A stretch of DNA of 64,000 nt from NCBI GenBank assembly GCA_038998335.1, contig JAVZHQ010000001.1:32001-96000 (forward strand), read 5' to 3'. Shown here one piece after another: positions 12,701 to 46,663 of this stretch; the first letter of the stretch is position 1, and each line of letters opens with the position of its first letter. The translations under genes were made by a program, and so were the position numbers. Under the pieces are notes generated by a model that had not been told where the DNA came from, did no database searches, and was given only the letters and a program-made list of their open reading frames with translations. The DNA comes from Candidatus Aenigmatarchaeota archaeon (GTDB lineage Archaea > Aenigmatarchaeota > Aenigmatarchaeia > CG10238-14 > SCSR01).

Positions 12701-12874
12701 ATGGAAGATTTAAAGTCACTTATAGAAGAGTTAATTTTTAAAGTAAAAAGTGATGAGGAATTTTTTAGGGAGTTTATTAGCTTTCTCAAAAGGTTTGGAA
12801 AGAGAGAAATATTACTAAGGATAGTAAGGAAAATTCTTTTAGATTCTTGTAAAAATTTAAAATTTAGCGAATAG
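12701..12874 (+). CDS. Small hypothetical protein (57 aa, not in ORF track)
   Basis: MEDLKSLIEELIFKVKSDEEFFREFISFLKRFGKREILLRIVRKILLDSCKNLKFSE; fills the gap, divergent from 12647, overlaps the tpiA end. Confidence 0.45.
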   Translation: MEDLKSLIEELIFKVKSDEEFFREFISFLKRFGKREILLRIVRKILLDSCKNLKFSE

Positions 12875-13532
12875 CTTTTGCAAAATCCTCTAGAACTCTT
12901 TTTGGATTTCTAGCTTTTACTACGCCTGAAGCAACAAGAATTCCTTTTGTTCCTAAATCCAAAGCTTTTTTAACGTCTTCTCCGTTAGTTATTCCTGCTC
13001 CGCACAAAACTTTTATTTCTGGATTAATTCTGTAAATTTCTTCGACAAATTCTTTAACACTATCAGGCTTTACTTTTGATATAGCCTTTCCACTTCCGAT
13101 TAAAATAGGATCCTCGTAAGCTATAAAATTCGGCTTAAATTTTGCGATTTCCTTTCCTTTTTCCAAGCTATCAGCGCAAACTACTGAAATAAGCTTGTAT
13201 TTCCTGAGCAATTCTACACGTTTTCCTATTTCTTCTAACTCAAGCTTTTTTTCTGAATGGTTTATTAAGCTTCCTTTTACTCCGTATTCTTTTAAAACTA
13301 ACAAAGAAACGTGTCCAGTAAAAGCTCCATATTCTATTGCGTCAACGTGCTGAGCAAAAACTGGTATTTTAACTTTTCTTGCAAGATAAAGGTCGGTAAA
13401 TTGTGGAGCAATAGCTATGTTAATTCTATAGTTTCTTGCAACTTTCTCGCAAATTTTTGTTAGCTTTAAAGCATTTTCTCCTGTAGCTTCTCTGTAGCAT
13501 TTAAAGTTAACAAGTATTAAAGGAAGTTTCAT
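12864..13532 (-). CDS. tpiA: Triosephosphate isomerase (archaeal type)
   Basis: VNFKCY, AQHVD, GAFTG, INHSE, AYEDPILIGSG, CGAGI, LVASG. Confidence 0.95.
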   Translation of the reverse strand: MKLPLILVNFKCYREATGENALKLTKICEKVARNYRINIAIAPQFTDLYLARKVKIPVFAQHVDAIEYGAFTGHVSLLVLKEYGVKGSLINHSEKKLELEEIGKRVELLRKYKLISVVCADSLEKGKEIAKFKPNFIAYEDPILIGSGKAISKVKPDSVKEFVEEIYRINPEIKVLCGAGITNGEDVKKALDLGTKGILVASGVVKARNPKRVLEDFAKAIR

Positions 13533-13631: not shown

Positions 13632-14579
13632 ATGGGATCCGAAAGTCCATCAGAAAAAATAAAAATCCGTAGTTTACCTTTAGAAGAAAGAATAAGACTA
13701 TATAACAAAGCAATCGATCTACACAAAAAATATGGTTGGGGATATGTGCGCATAAGCAAAAAACTCTCTGTTCCAATAGATGTTGTCAGGCATTGGTTAT
13801 ATTATGGAAGAATTCCAATTCGCCAAGGGCATCCCCATTTATTTGAGCCAACACCAAGCCCTGAATTAGCATATGTAATAGGAGTTGTTCTAGGTGATGG
13901 AAATTTAAGTCAAAGGAAAAAAAGTGGTGAAAGGTCTGGAAGGGTAATTAGACTAAGAGCAAGAGACAAAGAATTCGTAGAAAAGTTTGCTTTAGCCATG
14001 AGCAAATTGCTCAGAAAGAGAAAACCCTACAAGGTCGTATTTGAAAATAATCAATATAGAGTTTATGGTTATAGCTTTTATCTCTTTGAATTTTTGAAAA
14101 AACAATTCGATACATTAAAACCATTCATCGAAGCTTATCCGACAGAATTTATTAAAGGTGTTGTAGATAGTGAGGGAAGCGTGAAAATAAGTGTCTGGCG
14201 ATGGAAAACTTACAGAGCTTTAACAGTAAATGTGGCTATTACAAATACAAATTTAGAATTATTGTTATATGTTCATGAGCTTTTAAGAAAACATTTAGGA
14301 ATAGAAAGTATTATTAAGCCTAGCTATAAAGCAGGAAGCAAATTTTGGAGGAATGGTAAAGAATTTACTCGCAAAAAAGACATGTATGATTTAGTAATAA
14401 CTAAATTAAATGATGTGAAACTCTTTGCTTCTCGTGTGGGGTTTTCAATAAAAAGGAAACACCAAAAGTTGCTTGATGCAATTAGGATATGTGAAGATTT
14501 CAAATCTGGGGAAGAGCGAACTGAGGCTTGGTTAAAACTTTATAAAAAGAAAAATGGAAGGTGGGCAAGAATAAAGTAA
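13632..14579 (+). CDS. Free-standing HTH + double-motif LAGLIDADG homing endonuclease
   Basis: HTH GYVRISKKLSVPIDVVRHWL; motif 1 ELAYVIGVVLGDG; motif 2 EFIKGVVDSEG; both acidic catalytic positions retained; no intein termini. Confidence 0.85.
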   Translation: MGSESPSEKIKIRSLPLEERIRLYNKAIDLHKKYGWGYVRISKKLSVPIDVVRHWLYYGRIPIRQGHPHLFEPTPSPELAYVIGVVLGDGNLSQRKKSGERSGRVIRLRARDKEFVEKFALAMSKLLRKRKPYKVVFENNQYRVYGYSFYLFEFLKKQFDTLKPFIEAYPTEFIKGVVDSEGSVKISVWRWKTYRALTVNVAITNTNLELLLYVHELLRKHLGIESIIKPSYKAGSKFWRNGKEFTRKKDMYDLVITKLNDVKLFASRVGFSIKRKHQKLLDAIRICEDFKSGEERTEAWLKLYKKKNGRWARIK

Positions 14580-14607: not shown

Positions 14608-15734
14608 ATGAGCGAGAAAATTACGGTATCTTTAATAAAGGCTGACATAGATGGCTCATAGGAGCCAGTGTAAGCAGCCTTGTAGGGCATGGGAGAGTTC
14701 ATCCGGATATAATCAAAACAGCAGAAGAACTTTTACAAAAAGCAAAAGACGAGAATTTAATAATAGATTTTTTTGTCACCAACTGTGGAGACGATTTAGA
14801 ACTTATAATGACTCATCAAAAATTTATAGAGAACCCAGAAATTCATAAGCTTGCTTTTGATACTTTTATGAAATGCGCAGAAATAGCTAAATCCTTAAAG
14901 CTTTATGGAGCAGGCCAAGACTTGCTTAAAACTGCTTTCTCTGGCAATATAAAAGGTATGGGCCCAGGAGTTTGTGAAATAGCTTTTGAGGAAAGAAAAA
15001 GCGAGCCAATAGTTTGCTTTATGGCAGATAAAACAGAGCCAGGAGCCTGGAACATGGCTTTGTATAAAATATTTGCCGATCCTTTTAACACTCCAGGCCT
15101 AGTTATAGATCCGAGCATGCATTCAGGTTTTTCCTTTGAGGTTCATGATTTGTTTGAACATAAAAAGATAAGGTTTTCAGCTCCCTCAGAAATATATGAT
15201 TTACTTGTTTTTATAGGAGCTCCAGCAAGGTACTGTATAAAATCAGTTTTTAGGAACTCAGATAACGAAATTGCAGCTGTTTCTTCTACCGATAGGCTAA
15301 GCCTAATCGCAGGTCATTATGTGGGAAAAGATGACCCGGCTTTAATAGTAAGGGCTCAGTCTGGTTTCCCAGCTGTTGGTGAAATTTTAGAACCTTTCGC
15401 CTTTCCTTATCTTGTAGCAGGAGGAATGCGTGGTTCTCATAATGTTCCTCTCATGCCAGTAAGTTTAAAAGATGCTCATCCTACACGATTTGATGCGCCA
15501 GCCAGAGTTATAGCTTTAGGATTTCAGCTTAATAATGGAAAATTACAAGGTCCGGTAGATTTATTTGATGACCCTGCCTTCGATTATGTAAGACAAAAAT
15601 GTAACGAAATAATGGATTACATAAGAAAACACGGAACCTTTGAGCCTCATCGCTTACCCTTGGATGAAATGGAATATACAACTCTGCCAGAAGTTAGAAA
15701 AAGGCTTGAAAGTAGGTTTGAAAAATTAGGTTAG
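14608..15734 (+). CDS. fbp: Fructose-1,6-bisphosphate aldolase/phosphatase (class V FBPase); two exons 14608-14650 and 14674-15734, 367 aa after splicing
   Basis: Exon 1 MSEKITVSLIKADI(G) joins exon 2 SLVGHGRVHP...CGDDLELIMTH...YGAGQDLL...ADKTEPGAWN...YVGKDDP...GGMRGSH. Confidence 0.93.
14651..14673 (+). other. 23-nt BHB-type mRNA intron in fbp
   Basis: Outer helix AAGGCTG/CAGCCTT, central helix ACAT/GTGT, bulges AGA and AAG, inner hairpin TGGCTC-ATAG-GAGCCA. Removal restores the ADIGS motif and the reading frame. Confidence 0.88.
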
Positions 15735-31544: not shown

Positions 31545-32303
31545 TTACACCAACTTCCTTATTTCTTTACTTTTTTCTCTAGCTATATCAATCATTTTTA
31601 ATATATCATCAAACTCTAATTCTTTAAGCTGCTTTTGCATCGAGCATATTTTATCATCATCTCTTACAGAGATGCTAAGTTTTGAATCCAGAATTTTTTC
31701 TTCTTCTATTGTTGGGTCTAAAAGAAAGTTTTTACCTACTTTACAAACCGTTATGTTTATCGGCTTAAAAACTACTGGCAAACTTTTCTCAAATTCTCCC
31801 CTTATTATTTTCTCCCCTTCTATTTTTGGAATTCTTGTGTTATGTAAAGCAGCTACTGCTGCCAGAGCAGAAGCATCTAAAAGATTTCCTTTATCATTTA
31901 TTATATGAATATCAATGTACACACACCAAACTTTTTCTCCTGGAGTGATGCAAAGCTTGTCTAATTCTATGCACTTAGATTCTCTTATTCCTCTATCAAC
32001 AACTCTTGCTAATTCTATAGCATCTTCTCCAGGAGGACCAACATCAAACTCAGGCGAAGCCAAAGGAGTAAATTCAGCGTTTACAACTAAAGTGCCTTCT
32101 TCTGGTGTATCAGGGAAAGGTGTACCAAAATCCATTTTAACTCCAGCTATAACTTCTGTTTCCCCAAGTCTTACTCTTGCAGAACCTTCTGCCTTCTTAA
32201 TCATTCCCTTTTCAACTTCTATTTTCCTGAATTCATCAAACCTCCTTCCATCAATTCTCTTCCCTTTTTCTATAAGTTCTAGAGCATACTTTTCTTCCAT
32301 CAT
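31545..32303 (-). CDS. rrp42: Exosome complex subunit Rrp42
   Basis: GKRIDGR, AEGSARVRLG, PFPDTP, ELARVVDRGIRES. Confidence 0.95.
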   Translation of the reverse strand: MMEEKYALELIEKGKRIDGRRFDEFRKIEVEKGMIKKAEGSARVRLGETEVIAGVKMDFGTPFPDTPEEGTLVVNAEFTPLASPEFDVGPPGEDAIELARVVDRGIRESKCIELDKLCITPGEKVWCVYIDIHIINDKGNLLDASALAAVAALHNTRIPKIEGEKIIRGEFEKSLPVVFKPINITVCKVGKNFLLDPTIEEEKILDSKLSISVRDDDKICSMQKQLKELEFDDILKMIDIAREKSKEIRKLV

Positions 32304-43990: not shown

Positions 43991-44083
43991 TGGGGACGCT
44001 GGGATTTGAACCCAGGTTTTCTCGTGCAAAGCACTCTGAGCCTCCCAAGGGCCCGATCCTAGACCAAGCTAGACGACGTCCCC
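43991..44083 (-). tRNA. tRNA-Pro(TGG) with a probable 18-nt intron in the variable loop (44018-44035); CCA not encoded
   Basis: Acceptor GGGGACG/CGTCCCC, anticodon arm GGGCC-CTTGGGA-GGCTC, T arm CTGGG-TTCAAAT-CCCAG, 22-nt variable region. Confidence 0.9.
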
Positions 44084-44284: not shown

Positions 44285-46663
44285 ATGGTTTATGAAACTA
44301 TTGTTGGTAGACTAAAAGAAGATAGAGAAAAATTTGGAAACAAGTGCTCAGGCTACTTGGGTAAGCATATTGTTGGAACTGGCGAAGACGCTCACCTAAC
44401 AACAAAAGTTTTTATCGATTTGCTTCGATGTCATGTAATTCTAATTTCAGGAAAAAGGGGCTGTGTTACTAAGGATACACTCATTTTTACCGATAAAGGA
44501 TATAAACCAATAATGGAATTTGACAGGTTGAAGGATAAAGTTTATACCTGGAATTCTGAAACCGGTTCTTTTGAATGGACTGAGGCAAATTTGATTAGCT
44601 ACCCTATAGACGAGGAATTGTTTGAGATGGAGCTTCAAGACGGAAGAAGGATAATAGTAACCAATGATCATCCTCTTTTAACCTTTGAGGACGGCCATTT
44701 TAGGTGGAAAAAAGCCCAAGAATTGAAGGTCAACGACAGACTTGTTGTAAATTTAAAAGTTCCAGAAATAAGTAATGACAAGGAAAGCACTAGAATAGCT
44801 AGATTACTTGGTTTCGTTCTTGCCGATGGAAACATTTATATAAAAAAGGGTAAACAGAAAGATAGCAAAGGATATTGGTATAATGGAACTATAAAAAGAC
44901 TTAGAATTTTTAACGCTAATAAAAGTGTCCTACGTCAAGCTAAAAAAGATTTAGAGGAAGAATTTGGGGTTAAAGTTGGGGTTGAAAAGAGAAAAACAAG
45001 GGATGTTATTTTGCGAGTGAGAAATGGCAAAGTAATCGATAAATTTATAGAATTGGGAGTTCCTGTAGGTTCTAAGGCAGATAAAATAAGAGTACCACCA
45101 ATAGTTTGGGAGAGTTCGAATGATTTTAAAGCAAACTTCCTGAGCGCTCTTTTTTCCTGTGACGGTTATGTTGATAAAAATGGTGCGTTGTACTATTATT
45201 CAAAGTCAAGAAAATTTTTAGAAGATATTCAATTATTGCTCGCTCATTTTAAAATATTATCAACAATTAGACCAAAAATAGTGAAACTCAAGAAAAAACT
45301 GTTCATAAATTATACACTTTACATAACTGATCATTTTTCTATCGAGCAATTCAAGAAAATCGGCTTGATTCATGACAGGAAAAACAAACGATTGCAAAGT
45401 CATAAATTTAAAAAGTTTGAGATGAAGAAAGGAGTTAGATTTTTCACAGAAGAGTTAGTAGGTATTAAAATCAAAAAAATTAAAAAAGTCAAGGGAATTA
45501 AAGAAGTTTATGATCTTAACGTCCCAAAGACGCATTCTTTCTTAGCAAATGGTATCTTGTCCCATAATACAGGTAAAAGCTATGATGCAGGAGTAATAGC
45601 AGAAGAAATTGCTTCACTTCCACAAGAATTTAGAAAAAATTTAAGCGTAATTATGATAGATACTATGGGGATTTTCTGGAGCTTAAAAAAACCAAACGAA
45701 CAGCAAAAATCTTTACTTAAAGAATGGGGTCTAGAACCAAAAGGTTTTGAAAACGTGAAAGTTTTCGTTCCCTATTCTCAGCTAGAAGATTTTAAAAATG
45801 CAGGAATTCCCGTTGACGAAGGAATTTCTATTTTGCCTTATGAGTTTTCAGCCGAAGAATGGAGACTAGCTTTTAACTTAAAAAGAACAGAACCTGCAGG
45901 AATTGCTCTAGAAAAAGTTATAAACCAACTTTTAGAATCTCAACAAAATTTTTCCATAGATGATATAATAACAAAAGTTAGAGACGACAAAGAAACTTCA
46001 CAAGAAGTGAAAAGTGCTTTAGAAAACATGTTAACTGTAGCTAAGCAATGGGGAGTTTTTGGAGAAAAAGGAATTAATATAGATGATATTGTTCAACCAG
46101 GTCAAATTTCTGTGGTTGATGTTTCTAGGTTAAGGGCAACAGAAGCCTGGAGCGTTAGAAACTTTATTGTTGCTATGATAGCAAGAAAAGTTTATGAGTA
46201 TCGTTTGCTAGCAAGAAAAGAAGAGGAAATAGCAAAGCTTGAGGGAAGAAAACTTGAAAAAAGATATCCTATGGTTTGGCTTATTGTTGATGAGGCTCAC
46301 AACTTTTGTCCTTCAGATTTTGAAACAGTTTCTTCTCAACCATTTCTAACAATAGCAAAGCAAGGAAGAGAACCTGGGGTAAGCTTGGTAGTAATAACCC
46401 AAATGCCAAACAAAATTCATCAAGACATTCTAAGCCAATGTGATTTAGTAATTTCTCATCGTTTAACTTCTCGTGATGATTTACAAGCTTTGCATGCTGT
46501 TTATCAAACTTATATGGCTGAAGAAATTGAGAAAATGATTAACAAGCTCCCAAGATGGCCTGGAGCTGCTTTAATTCTTGACGATAATCTGGAAAAAATT
46601 TTTACTGTTTGCGTTAGGCCTAGACTTTCATGGCATGCAGGAGGAACTGCTGCAGTTGTTTAA
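44285..46663 (+). CDS. HerA/FtsK-like (DUF87) ATPase containing an intein
   Basis: Spliced Walker A GKRG|TGKS, IDTMG, Walker B LIVDEAH, KQGREPG, TQMP. Confidence 0.88.
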   Translation: MVYETIVGRLKEDREKFGNKCSGYLGKHIVGTGEDAHLTTKVFIDLLRCHVILISGKRGCVTKDTLIFTDKGYKPIMEFDRLKDKVYTWNSETGSFEWTEANLISYPIDEELFEMELQDGRRIIVTNDHPLLTFEDGHFRWKKAQELKVNDRLVVNLKVPEISNDKESTRIARLLGFVLADGNIYIKKGKQKDSKGYWYNGTIKRLRIFNANKSVLRQAKKDLEEEFGVKVGVEKRKTRDVILRVRNGKVIDKFIELGVPVGSKADKIRVPPIVWESSNDFKANFLSALFSCDGYVDKNGALYYYSKSRKFLEDIQLLLAHFKILSTIRPKIVKLKKKLFINYTLYITDHFSIEQFKKIGLIHDRKNKRLQSHKFKKFEMKKGVRFFTEELVGIKIKKIKKVKGIKEVYDLNVPKTHSFLANGILSHNTGKSYDAGVIAEEIASLPQEFRKNLSVIMIDTMGIFWSLKKPNEQQKSLLKEWGLEPKGFENVKVFVPYSQLEDFKNAGIPVDEGISILPYEFSAEEWRLAFNLKRTEPAGIALEKVINQLLESQQNFSIDDIITKVRDDKETSQEVKSALENMLTVAKQWGVFGEKGINIDDIVQPGQISVVDVSRLRATEAWSVRNFIVAMIARKVYEYRLLARKEEEIAKLEGRKLEKRYPMVWLIVDEAHNFCPSDFETVSSQPFLTIAKQGREPGVSLVVITQMPNKIHQDILSQCDLVISHRLTSRDDLQALHAVYQTYMAEEIEKMINKLPRWPGAALILDDNLEKIFTVCVRPRLSWHAGGTAAVV
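44462..45568 (+). mobile_element. Intein (369 aa) with LAGLIDADG homing endonuclease
   Basis: N-terminal C(VTKDT), block B TNDHP, motifs RLLGFVLADG and FLSALFSCDG, VYDLNV..HSFLANGILSHN, followed by Thr+1. Confidence 0.93.

Follow-up and report, generated by a model that had tools for sequence, protein, structure and literature searches.

A probable tRNA-type intron in the fructose-1,6-bisphosphate aldolase/phosphatase gene of a DPANN archaeon and its candidate homing-endonuclease partner

The gene encoding fructose-1,6-bisphosphate aldolase/phosphatase (FBPase) in a Candidatus Aenigmatarchaeota archaeon lies in two pieces, in different reading frames, on a stretch of 64,000 nucleotides (nt) that we refer to as the window (positions 32,001 to 96,000, forward strand, of contig JAVZHQ010000001.1, assembly GCA_038998335.1). 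The window belongs to a genome assembly, G000, of 1.0 Mb in 9 contigs that is about 90% complete and contains the contig C1; the run listing for matching DNA indicates a hot-spring origin and includes no RNA run. Judged from its sequence and its relatives, the 23-nt segment separating the two pieces of the gene (window positions 14651-14673) is very probably an archaeal bulge-helix-bulge (BHB), or tRNA-type, intron in the coding sequence of this DPANN, Aenigmatarchaeota-like organism. Here we describe the intron and its same-site alleles, further interrupted genes of the same genome, and a set of free-standing LAGLIDADG endonuclease genes that may be partners of these introns in mobility.

The interrupted FBPase gene

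The first exon of FBPase (14608-14650, plus strand) comprises 14 codons and the first base of codon 15, and its predicted N-terminus aligns with those of orthologues. The second exon (14674-15734, plus strand) supplies the remaining two bases of that codon, continues with codons 16-367 and ends in a stop codon at 15732-15734. When the gene is read without interruption from the ATG at 14608, an in-frame TAG at 14659-14661 limits the product to 17 amino acids (aa). The downstream frame, which is the +2 frame relative to this ATG, is open from 14646 to the stop codon, and its translation from 14676 matches the Pfam family FBPase_3 (PF01950) with an E value of 1.4e-171 over profile positions 13-361 of 361. 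Because this match begins only at profile position 13, the N-terminal motif is missing from the downstream frame; the missing dozen residues are encoded by 14608-14650. Comparison of the exon 2 product with the Protein Data Bank gives the same picture, with matches to 3r1m/1umg (E 4.5e-143) and to 3t2b, described as 'fructose-1,6-bisphosphate aldolase/phosphatase', that start at residue 15/16 of those proteins, the first residue of the exon 2 frame being aligned to Ser15 of the 3r1m chain.

The putative intron (14651-14673, plus strand) falls within codon 15, includes the in-frame TAG (14659) and displaces the reading frame by 2. It forms the core of a complete helix-bulge-helix-bulge-helix (hBHBh') motif at 14638-14681 on the same strand, in which an outer helix of 7 Watson-Crick pairs (14638-14644/14675-14681) and a central helix of 3 Watson-Crick pairs and 1 G-U pair (14645-14648/14668-14671) are joined by two bulges of 3 nt each (14649-14651 and 14672-14674) to an inner hairpin of 6 base pairs (bp) with a 4-nt loop (14652-14667). 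The archaeal splicing endonuclease cuts such motifs after the second base of each bulge. Cuts placed by this rule remove precisely 14651-14673, leaving 43 + 1058 = 1101 nt, or 367 codons, with glycine at codon 15, and rebuild the conserved D-I-G-S-x-x-G-H motif of FBPase. The splice junction is fixed and cannot slide, because the bases flanking the two cuts differ. An earlier note on this DNA had proposed the intron, and on recomputation every one of its coordinates, helices and bulges holds, as do its 17-aa unspliced peptide and its 367-aa spliced frame.

Folding of 14630-14690 yields a z score of -3.39, and none of 200 shuffled sequences folds as well. In a scan of both strands of the 1.0-Mb genome that allowed an inner part of 6-150 nt, the motif ranks second among 4,926 loosely defined helix-bulge-helix-bulge-helix motifs. 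Two results of this kind weigh against relying on the fold. The minimum-energy structure retains the outer and inner helices and omits the weak 4-bp central helix, and four first-order Markov genomes used as controls contain 1, 1, 0 and 0 motifs that are as good or better, or about 0.5 per random genome. Since random genomes yield equally good motifs, the motif by itself could arise by chance somewhere in a genome; what chance does not explain is its coincidence with the single position and length that repair a conserved gene. The other top-scoring strict BHB motifs (C1:124175, C1:543606 and C1:10690) were rejected as mRNA introns, being intergenic and fusing no frames. The best-scoring strict motif of the genome, at C1:124175-124260 with a 79-nt 'intron', may be a processing site in a non-coding RNA.

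Alleles at the same site support the structure. In G003, a member of the same genus whose FBPase protein is 94% identical, and in the metagenome locus L142 (86% identical), a 21-nt insert with an in-frame TAA occupies the FBPase intron site, and the cut rule applied to these inserts restores ADVGS and ADVGG, respectively. When the three alleles are aligned, all 49 of 49 cells are paired and none is broken, and 4 pairs have changed on both sides (1 in the outer, 1 in the central and 2 in the inner helix). This level is reached by 9 of 500 shuffles, and slid registers pair at 23-52%, although the sample is small, at 3 sequences. Orthologue alignment thus bears out the BHB structure of the earlier note through same-site 21-nt alleles and compensatory changes. 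The introns of G003 and L142 agree at 21 of 21 bases, although their host genes are saturated at synonymous sites (pS 0.79); the identity could reflect strong constraint or recent transfer. The outer helix carries less weight, for the exons that form it are partly complementary even in intron-less alleles, with a mode of 5 of 7 pairs and 3 of 89 reaching 7/7 when G-U pairs are counted; exon co-adaptation is therefore weak evidence.

The machinery for splicing such an intron is present. The genome encodes a single EndA of 188 aa with both Pfam domains (PF02778 and PF01974) and a single RtcB (PF01139, E 7.9e-165), whose own gene is interrupted, and ARAGORN predicts 46 tRNA genes, many with introns. 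The available text of one study associates alpha4-type EndAs with an extra loop in DPANN archaea with many disrupted tRNA genes (PMC5829648). Applied to tRNA-Ser(CGA) (C1:504696-504833) and tRNA-Leu(UAA) (C1:785187-785307), the BHB cut rule gives junctions at 37/38 and 7-nt anticodon loops. Splicing these tRNAs in silico and calling them again is blind to a shift of both cuts by one base in either direction, so that the check rests on reading the anticodon loops; a comparison of ARAGORN's intron coordinates with the rule gave zero matches, ARAGORN placing introns by a different logic.

We infer cleavage and ligation from these features. The FBPase pre-mRNA would fold into helix, 3-nt bulge, 4-bp helix, 3-nt bulge and helix; the single EndA would cut after the second base of each bulge; and RtcB would join the exons, recreating the glycine codon 15 and the D-I-G-S-x-x-G-H motif of a 367-aa enzyme. 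The BHB intron and the restoration of an ADIGS..GH motif, as the earlier note had them, are supported by the geometry, by DNA from two studies, by the same-site alleles, by purifying selection, by EndA and RtcB, and by the tRNA junctions.

Further interrupted genes and free-standing LAGLIDADG endonucleases

The FBPase intron appears not to be alone, the genome holding what look to be at least three further mRNA mini-introns, of 12-31 nt, in rtcB, alba and cbf5. In all four genes the insert lies within the most conserved codons, and the cut rule restores the conserved motifs of the other three as well. The rtcB insert of 18 nt (C1:120826-120843; L017:1576-1593) carries two in-frame TAA codons and splits PDMHFGY|GFPIG; in its fold, the 4-bp central helix is rich in G-U pairs, the inner hairpin has 4 bp and the outer helix only 2 bp. 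In the survey of relatives, 5 of 28 evaluable loci have an insert at the same site, with lengths of 16, 18, 20, 26 and 29 nt; the inner helices vary in sequence and all pair. The alba insert of 31 nt (C1:675450-675480, minus strand) forms a strict BHB motif and splits VG|RKP; it recurs at the same site in G019 and is absent from 28 other loci. In cbf5 (C1:283826-284179, minus strand; L139:1790-1860), a 12-nt insert containing a TGA splits the catalytic GTLD|P motif and adopts a bulge-helix-loop fold.

The earlier note had suggested scanning the genome for more BHB-flanked frameshifts; further interrupted genes were found, though not by the motif-based route. A genome-wide search for excisions that fuse two open frames was abandoned, since shifted cuts score equally (for example, 238 versus 235 and 247 loci); gene-gene junctions swamp the signal and make the search uninformative. 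The three further genes came instead from adjacency to endonuclease genes and from family searches, and four interrupted genes are accordingly a lower bound. RNase HII, considered as a further candidate, has no stop in this genome.

Other irregularities were seen in the same genes. The alba gene of G019 has a second, 18-nt insert further into the gene, and rtcB of G020 has a 13-nt insert splitting GG|IGFD. The rtcB genes of several relatives are otherwise broken (G011:C49, G034:C59, G030:C9, G020:C80 and G004:C35); open frames of 520-840 aa that follow residue ~30 of their second exon suggest inteins.

Three of the four interrupted genes lie directly downstream of a free-standing LAGLIDADG open reading frame (ORF). 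LAGLIDADG_3 ORFs of 315, 279 and 269 aa precede FBPase, rtcB and alba and end 28, 0 and 2 nt before the respective start codons. The FBPase-linked gene (13632-14579, plus strand; Pfam LAGLIDADG_3, E 1.1e-11) stands between FBPase and the triosephosphate isomerase (TIM) gene (12864-13532, minus strand; Pfam TIM, E 5.9e-41), a conserved neighbour in divergent orientation that indicates the ancestral arrangement. In intron-less relatives the TIM start directly abuts FBPase with no endonuclease gene between them, which identifies the endonuclease gene as an insertion. The rtcB-linked ORF lies at C1:119765-120604 and overlaps the start of rtcB, and the alba-linked ORF is of the LAGLIDADG/NUMOD3 type and ends 51 nt upstream of the alba insert. 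Outside inteins, the genome has 7 free-standing LAGLIDADG ORFs, 5 of them above the Pfam cut-off, and the three linked to FBPase, rtcB and alba are not close relatives of one another.

The association is strongest for rtcB. Homologues of the rtcB-type endonuclease (E <= 1e-50) adjoin rtcB in 12 of 12 genomes. Of the rtcB genes beside an endonuclease, 11 can be evaluated, and every one has 18-36 nt inserted into its PDxHxGYGxPIG stretch, at one of two sites separated by 9 nt. Allowing no more than one central mismatch, the BHB rule repairs 9 of these 11 motifs. In the relatives, 3 of the 4 evaluable rtcB loci with an intron also have an endonuclease gene or its remnant, compared with none of 23 intron-less loci. 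Stages of decay can also be recognized: the FBPase-linked endonuclease gene of G003 is frameshifted, G020 retains a 25-aa endonuclease remnant together with the rtcB intron, and G146 has a remnant with 8 stop codons beside an uninterrupted rtcB. In more distant families of the class (L223-L229 and L231), the rtcB insert is 29-36 nt long, has a long inner hairpin and comes after the histidine codon of PDGH. This position is 9 nt upstream of the one occupied in the window's family, and homologous endonuclease genes adjoin the insert here as well.

For FBPase the evidence for an endonuclease link is weaker. Across the 371 genomes of the class that were searched, homologues of its endonuclease (E <= 1e-40) adjoin FBPase in 7 of 9 genomes, lying upstream in G000, G003 and G048 and convergently at the 3' end in G001, G019, G103 and G106. 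A strain represented by sequencing runs X2 and X3 also has the endonuclease gene upstream of FBPase, where it is absent from G005 and other relatives. The intron is present in 2 of 8 endonuclease-adjacent FBPase genes and once without an endonuclease. At L110 (G048:C32), a 24-nt stretch containing the FBPase ribosome-binding site and start codon is tandemly duplicated immediately after the endonuclease stop codon.

These observations raise the possibility, to which we give about even chances, that the FBPase intron and the upstream LAGLIDADG gene form a mobile pair of the kind termed 'collaborative homing'. The endonuclease would cut intron-less FBPase alleles at or near the conserved motif, repair would copy the endonuclease gene together with the intron, and the intron, by splitting the recognition site in its own genome, would protect that genome from its own endonuclease. 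Two insertion sites within one rtcB motif for one endonuclease family are what a split recognition site predicts. In a more general form, which we put forward tentatively and with slightly less assurance, BHB mini-introns in these DPANN archaea would be 'immunity inserts' against free-standing LAGLIDADG endonucleases that target the DNA of invariant motifs (D-I-G-S of FBPase, PDxHxGYG of RtcB and VGxKP of Alba), with endonuclease gene and mini-intron spreading jointly through gene conversion. On this proposal, the codons of an invariant motif cannot drift, so a host could escape its own endonuclease only through a split that can be spliced out.

Several findings weigh against such a partnership. 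Endonuclease-adjacent FBPase genes are interrupted only in G000 and G003 and in the X2/X3 strain; G048 has the endonuclease upstream of an intron-less FBPase, and the four genomes with a convergent endonuclease at the 3' end of FBPase also lack the intron. Conversely, the FBPase intron of L142, the rtcB intron of G012 and the alba intron of G019 occur without a detectable endonuclease, cbf5 of G000 has no endonuclease neighbour, and the 371 genomes contain no close homologue of the alba-linked endonuclease. Moreover, kin are not independent, so that the association counts overstate significance. The same endonucleases without introns and introns without endonucleases favour an alternative in which the intron is real and spliced and the nearby endonuclease merely hitch-hikes: its target would be another nearby site, in the intergenic or 5' region, and the intron would be co-converted or old and confer no immunity. 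We consider this alternative unlikely, but it is the strongest of those weighed here. It does not readily account for three of the four interrupted genes of one genome having an endonuclease directly upstream, and simple carriage does not predict that every endonuclease-adjacent, evaluable rtcB should be interrupted within one 12-codon motif at two sites. Taken as a whole, a BHB intron together with the proposed endonuclease partnership is in our judgement a likely explanation of the locus and the best available.

Regulation, recoding and loss of function

The distribution of the intron bears on the view that controlled splicing switches gluconeogenesis. Among relatives' FBPase loci that include the N-terminus, 12 of 13 are continuous, G003 being the exception; among metagenome loci, 77 of 80 are continuous, 2 could not be evaluated and 1, L142, is interrupted; and three more endonuclease-adjacent FBPase genes are continuous. 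The insert is thus absent from 92 other orthologues in total, including those of the closest relatives, G005 (protein 95% identical) and L140 (93%). A TAA flagged inside FBPase of G001 as an interruption proved to be simply the stop codon of that gene. The only point in favour of regulation is that unspliced RNA yields no enzyme. Apart from the patchy distribution, it is countered by similar inserts in three genes whose pathways are not that of FBPase (rtcB, alba and cbf5) and by the fold, which takes up all 23 nt; no sensor element was seen. A patchy intron among near-identical relatives, next to a homing-endonuclease gene, points to a selfish or neutral element. The splicing-level control of gluconeogenesis suggested in the earlier note is therefore without support, and we regard it as improbable.

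Translational recoding, in which the ribosome would shift frame or hop over the insert and leave the RNA uncut, has a precedent in gene 60 of phage T4, where ribosomes bypass a gap with a stop codon at the break and a hairpin within it. FBPase likewise has a stop codon right after the break and a hairpin in the gap. There are, however, no matching take-off and landing codons around the gap, and a -1/+2 shift would insert 8 foreign residues inside D-x-G-S-x-x-G-H. Furthermore, the 21-nt in-frame TAA alleles of G003 and L142 and the 23-nt out-of-frame allele cannot share a recoding mechanism, whereas one excision rule mends both, and the rtcB inserts of five lengths have their fold geometry in common and not their frame. 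Recoding is accordingly very unlikely.

Inactivation of FBPase by a small palindromic insertion is just as hard to sustain. In its favour, the gene is truncated as annotated, and 27 of 41 related genomes give no FBPase match, which means that some members of the group can do without the enzyme. Against it, the ratio of nonsynonymous to synonymous substitution (dN/dS) between the two interrupted alleles of G000 and G003 is 0.028 at a dS of 1.42 (212 codons); comparisons of FBPase with relatives give 0.017-0.028; no further stop codon occurs within 352 codons; and an insert of the same type lies in rtcB, an essential gene, in a genome where intron-bearing tRNA genes abound.

An assembly or sequencing artefact can be dismissed for practical purposes, since the insert is free of gaps in contigs of three runs from two studies, confirming in DNA what the earlier note had reported, and related inserts exist in G003 and L142. 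Logan contigs of run X1, possibly the source sample, show 0 differences from the window sequence that they match. Those of runs X2 and X3, from another study, are ~97% identical with 0 gaps, and their sole change inside the 23-nt intron is an A>G at 14658, in the hairpin loop.

Known archaeal introns and homing systems

According to the accessible text of a 2023 review (PMC10485636), only two archaeal genes are recognized as having endonuclease-spliced mRNAs, cbf5 and HVO_1309 of Haloferax, and more are expected. The description of cbf5 as the well-known archaeal case in the earlier note was thus nearly right, HVO_1309 also being counted. Other archaeal mRNA introns were predicted and unconfirmed as of Yokobori 2009, in the portion of that article available (PMC2738675). 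The cbf5 intron of Desulfurococcales and Sulfolobales (Watanabe 2002; Yoshinari 2006; Yokobori 2009, PMC2738675) resembles that of FBPase, as far as the excerpted accounts describe it, in being short, BHB-like, cut by the tRNA splicing endonuclease, patchy among relatives and miscalled as a frameshift by annotation pipelines. The motif is strict hBHBh' in FBPase, whereas it is relaxed in cbf5 in the sections of the review consulted (PMC10485636). The systems differ further in their hosts and enzymes: the interrupted gene encodes a central-metabolism enzyme here and an RNA-modification enzyme in crenarchaeal cbf5, the organism belongs to DPANN and not to Thermoproteota, and a single alpha-type EndA gene stands in place of the (alpha-beta)2 enzyme of the cbf5 system. 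An endonuclease gene adjoins the interrupted FBPase, unlike the crenarchaeal cbf5 case, and the 12-nt insert in the cbf5 gene of G000 itself is a separate one.

Some archaeal tRNA and rRNA BHB introns carry internal LAGLIDADG homing endonucleases, such as I-DmoI and I-PorI. These introns share with the FBPase intron their fold, cut rule and processing enzymes and, if our proposal is correct, a LAGLIDADG mobility partner. In them the endonuclease is encoded inside the intron, whereas here it is a separate upstream ORF beside a 23-nt intron in an mRNA.

HVO_1309 of Haloferax volcanii (Schwarz 2020, PMC7714728, as summarised in PMC10485636) is likewise an archaeal mRNA with a BHB processed by the splicing endonuclease, and the available text of the review states that RNA-seq showed the spliced product (PMC10485636); that case has experimental support, whereas the FBPase intron is predicted from DNA sequence. 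The closest parallel to the proposed partnership comes from cyanophage S-PM2, in which a free-standing gene for F-CphI lies beside an intron-bearing psbA whose intron lacks an endonuclease; in the partial account we draw on, F-CphI cleaves alleles that lack the intron, at the point where the intron inserts, and the intron prevents self-cleavage (Zeng, Bonocora, Shub 2009, as described in PMC6083498). By the same account, the phage intron is a self-splicing one of group I, the enzyme is of the EndoVII type and its cleavage was demonstrated (PMC6083498). The FBPase pair, in contrast, would consist of a BHB mini-intron spliced by proteins and a LAGLIDADG enzyme with a proposed cleavage activity, both in a cellular archaeon. 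Putative 12-bp introns in archaeal virus genes (Peng et al., as cited in PMC2738675) are similar in being very short inserts in protein-coding genes for which splicing was proposed, and their size equals that of the cbf5 insert described here; they differ in their viral host, and the passages available state that splicing was never demonstrated for them (PMC2738675). In the literature searched, which did not extend to subscription journals and supplements, we found neither an mRNA intron in FBPase, rtcB or alba nor a free-standing LAGLIDADG gene paired with a BHB intron.

The FBPase intron would add a central-metabolism enzyme to the very short list of archaeal genes with endonuclease-spliced mRNAs. 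Together with rtcB, alba and cbf5 of the same genome, it suggests that introns of this small size can occur regularly in the mRNAs of a DPANN lineage, and its setting (several interrupted genes, mini size, a DPANN host and an endonuclease partner) appears to set it apart among archaeal mRNA introns. Annotation pipelines will call such genes truncated or pseudogenes, and gluconeogenesis, RNA ligation or chromatin proteins will in consequence be counted as absent, in error, when the metabolism of such small genomes is reconstructed. The link to endonucleases offers a concrete explanation both for the origin of the introns and for their placement in the most conserved codons. An rtcB gene that requires RtcB for the maturation of its own mRNA would constitute a self-dependent loop. 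If the immunity-insert proposal is true, it would describe the first collaborative-homing system outside phage group I introns and a way for tRNA-type introns to invade genes that encode proteins, rtcB among them.

Other LAGLIDADG sequences and tRNA genes of the genome are recorded here for completeness. Two LAGLIDADG ORFs (C1:370897-371646 and C1:650760-651774) end at a tRNA or tRNA-like sequence. For one of them the neighbour is tRNA-Cys(GCA), in which an intron of 31 nt is predicted. Downstream of the other lies a sequence that has a tRNA T-arm and is not called by ARAGORN; it may be a split tRNA, or a tRNA whose intron is unusual. Within the window, two LAGLIDADG_3 matches at 44792-45355 (C1:76792-77355) lie inside a 793-aa open frame that probably contains an intein. 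A scan of the window against Rfam returned two tRNA-Pro genes only. In the 93-nt tRNA-Pro(UGG) (43991-44083, minus strand), excision of a 14-nt BHB-like segment leaves a 79-nt tRNA-Pro, and this gene probably carries a small non-canonical intron.

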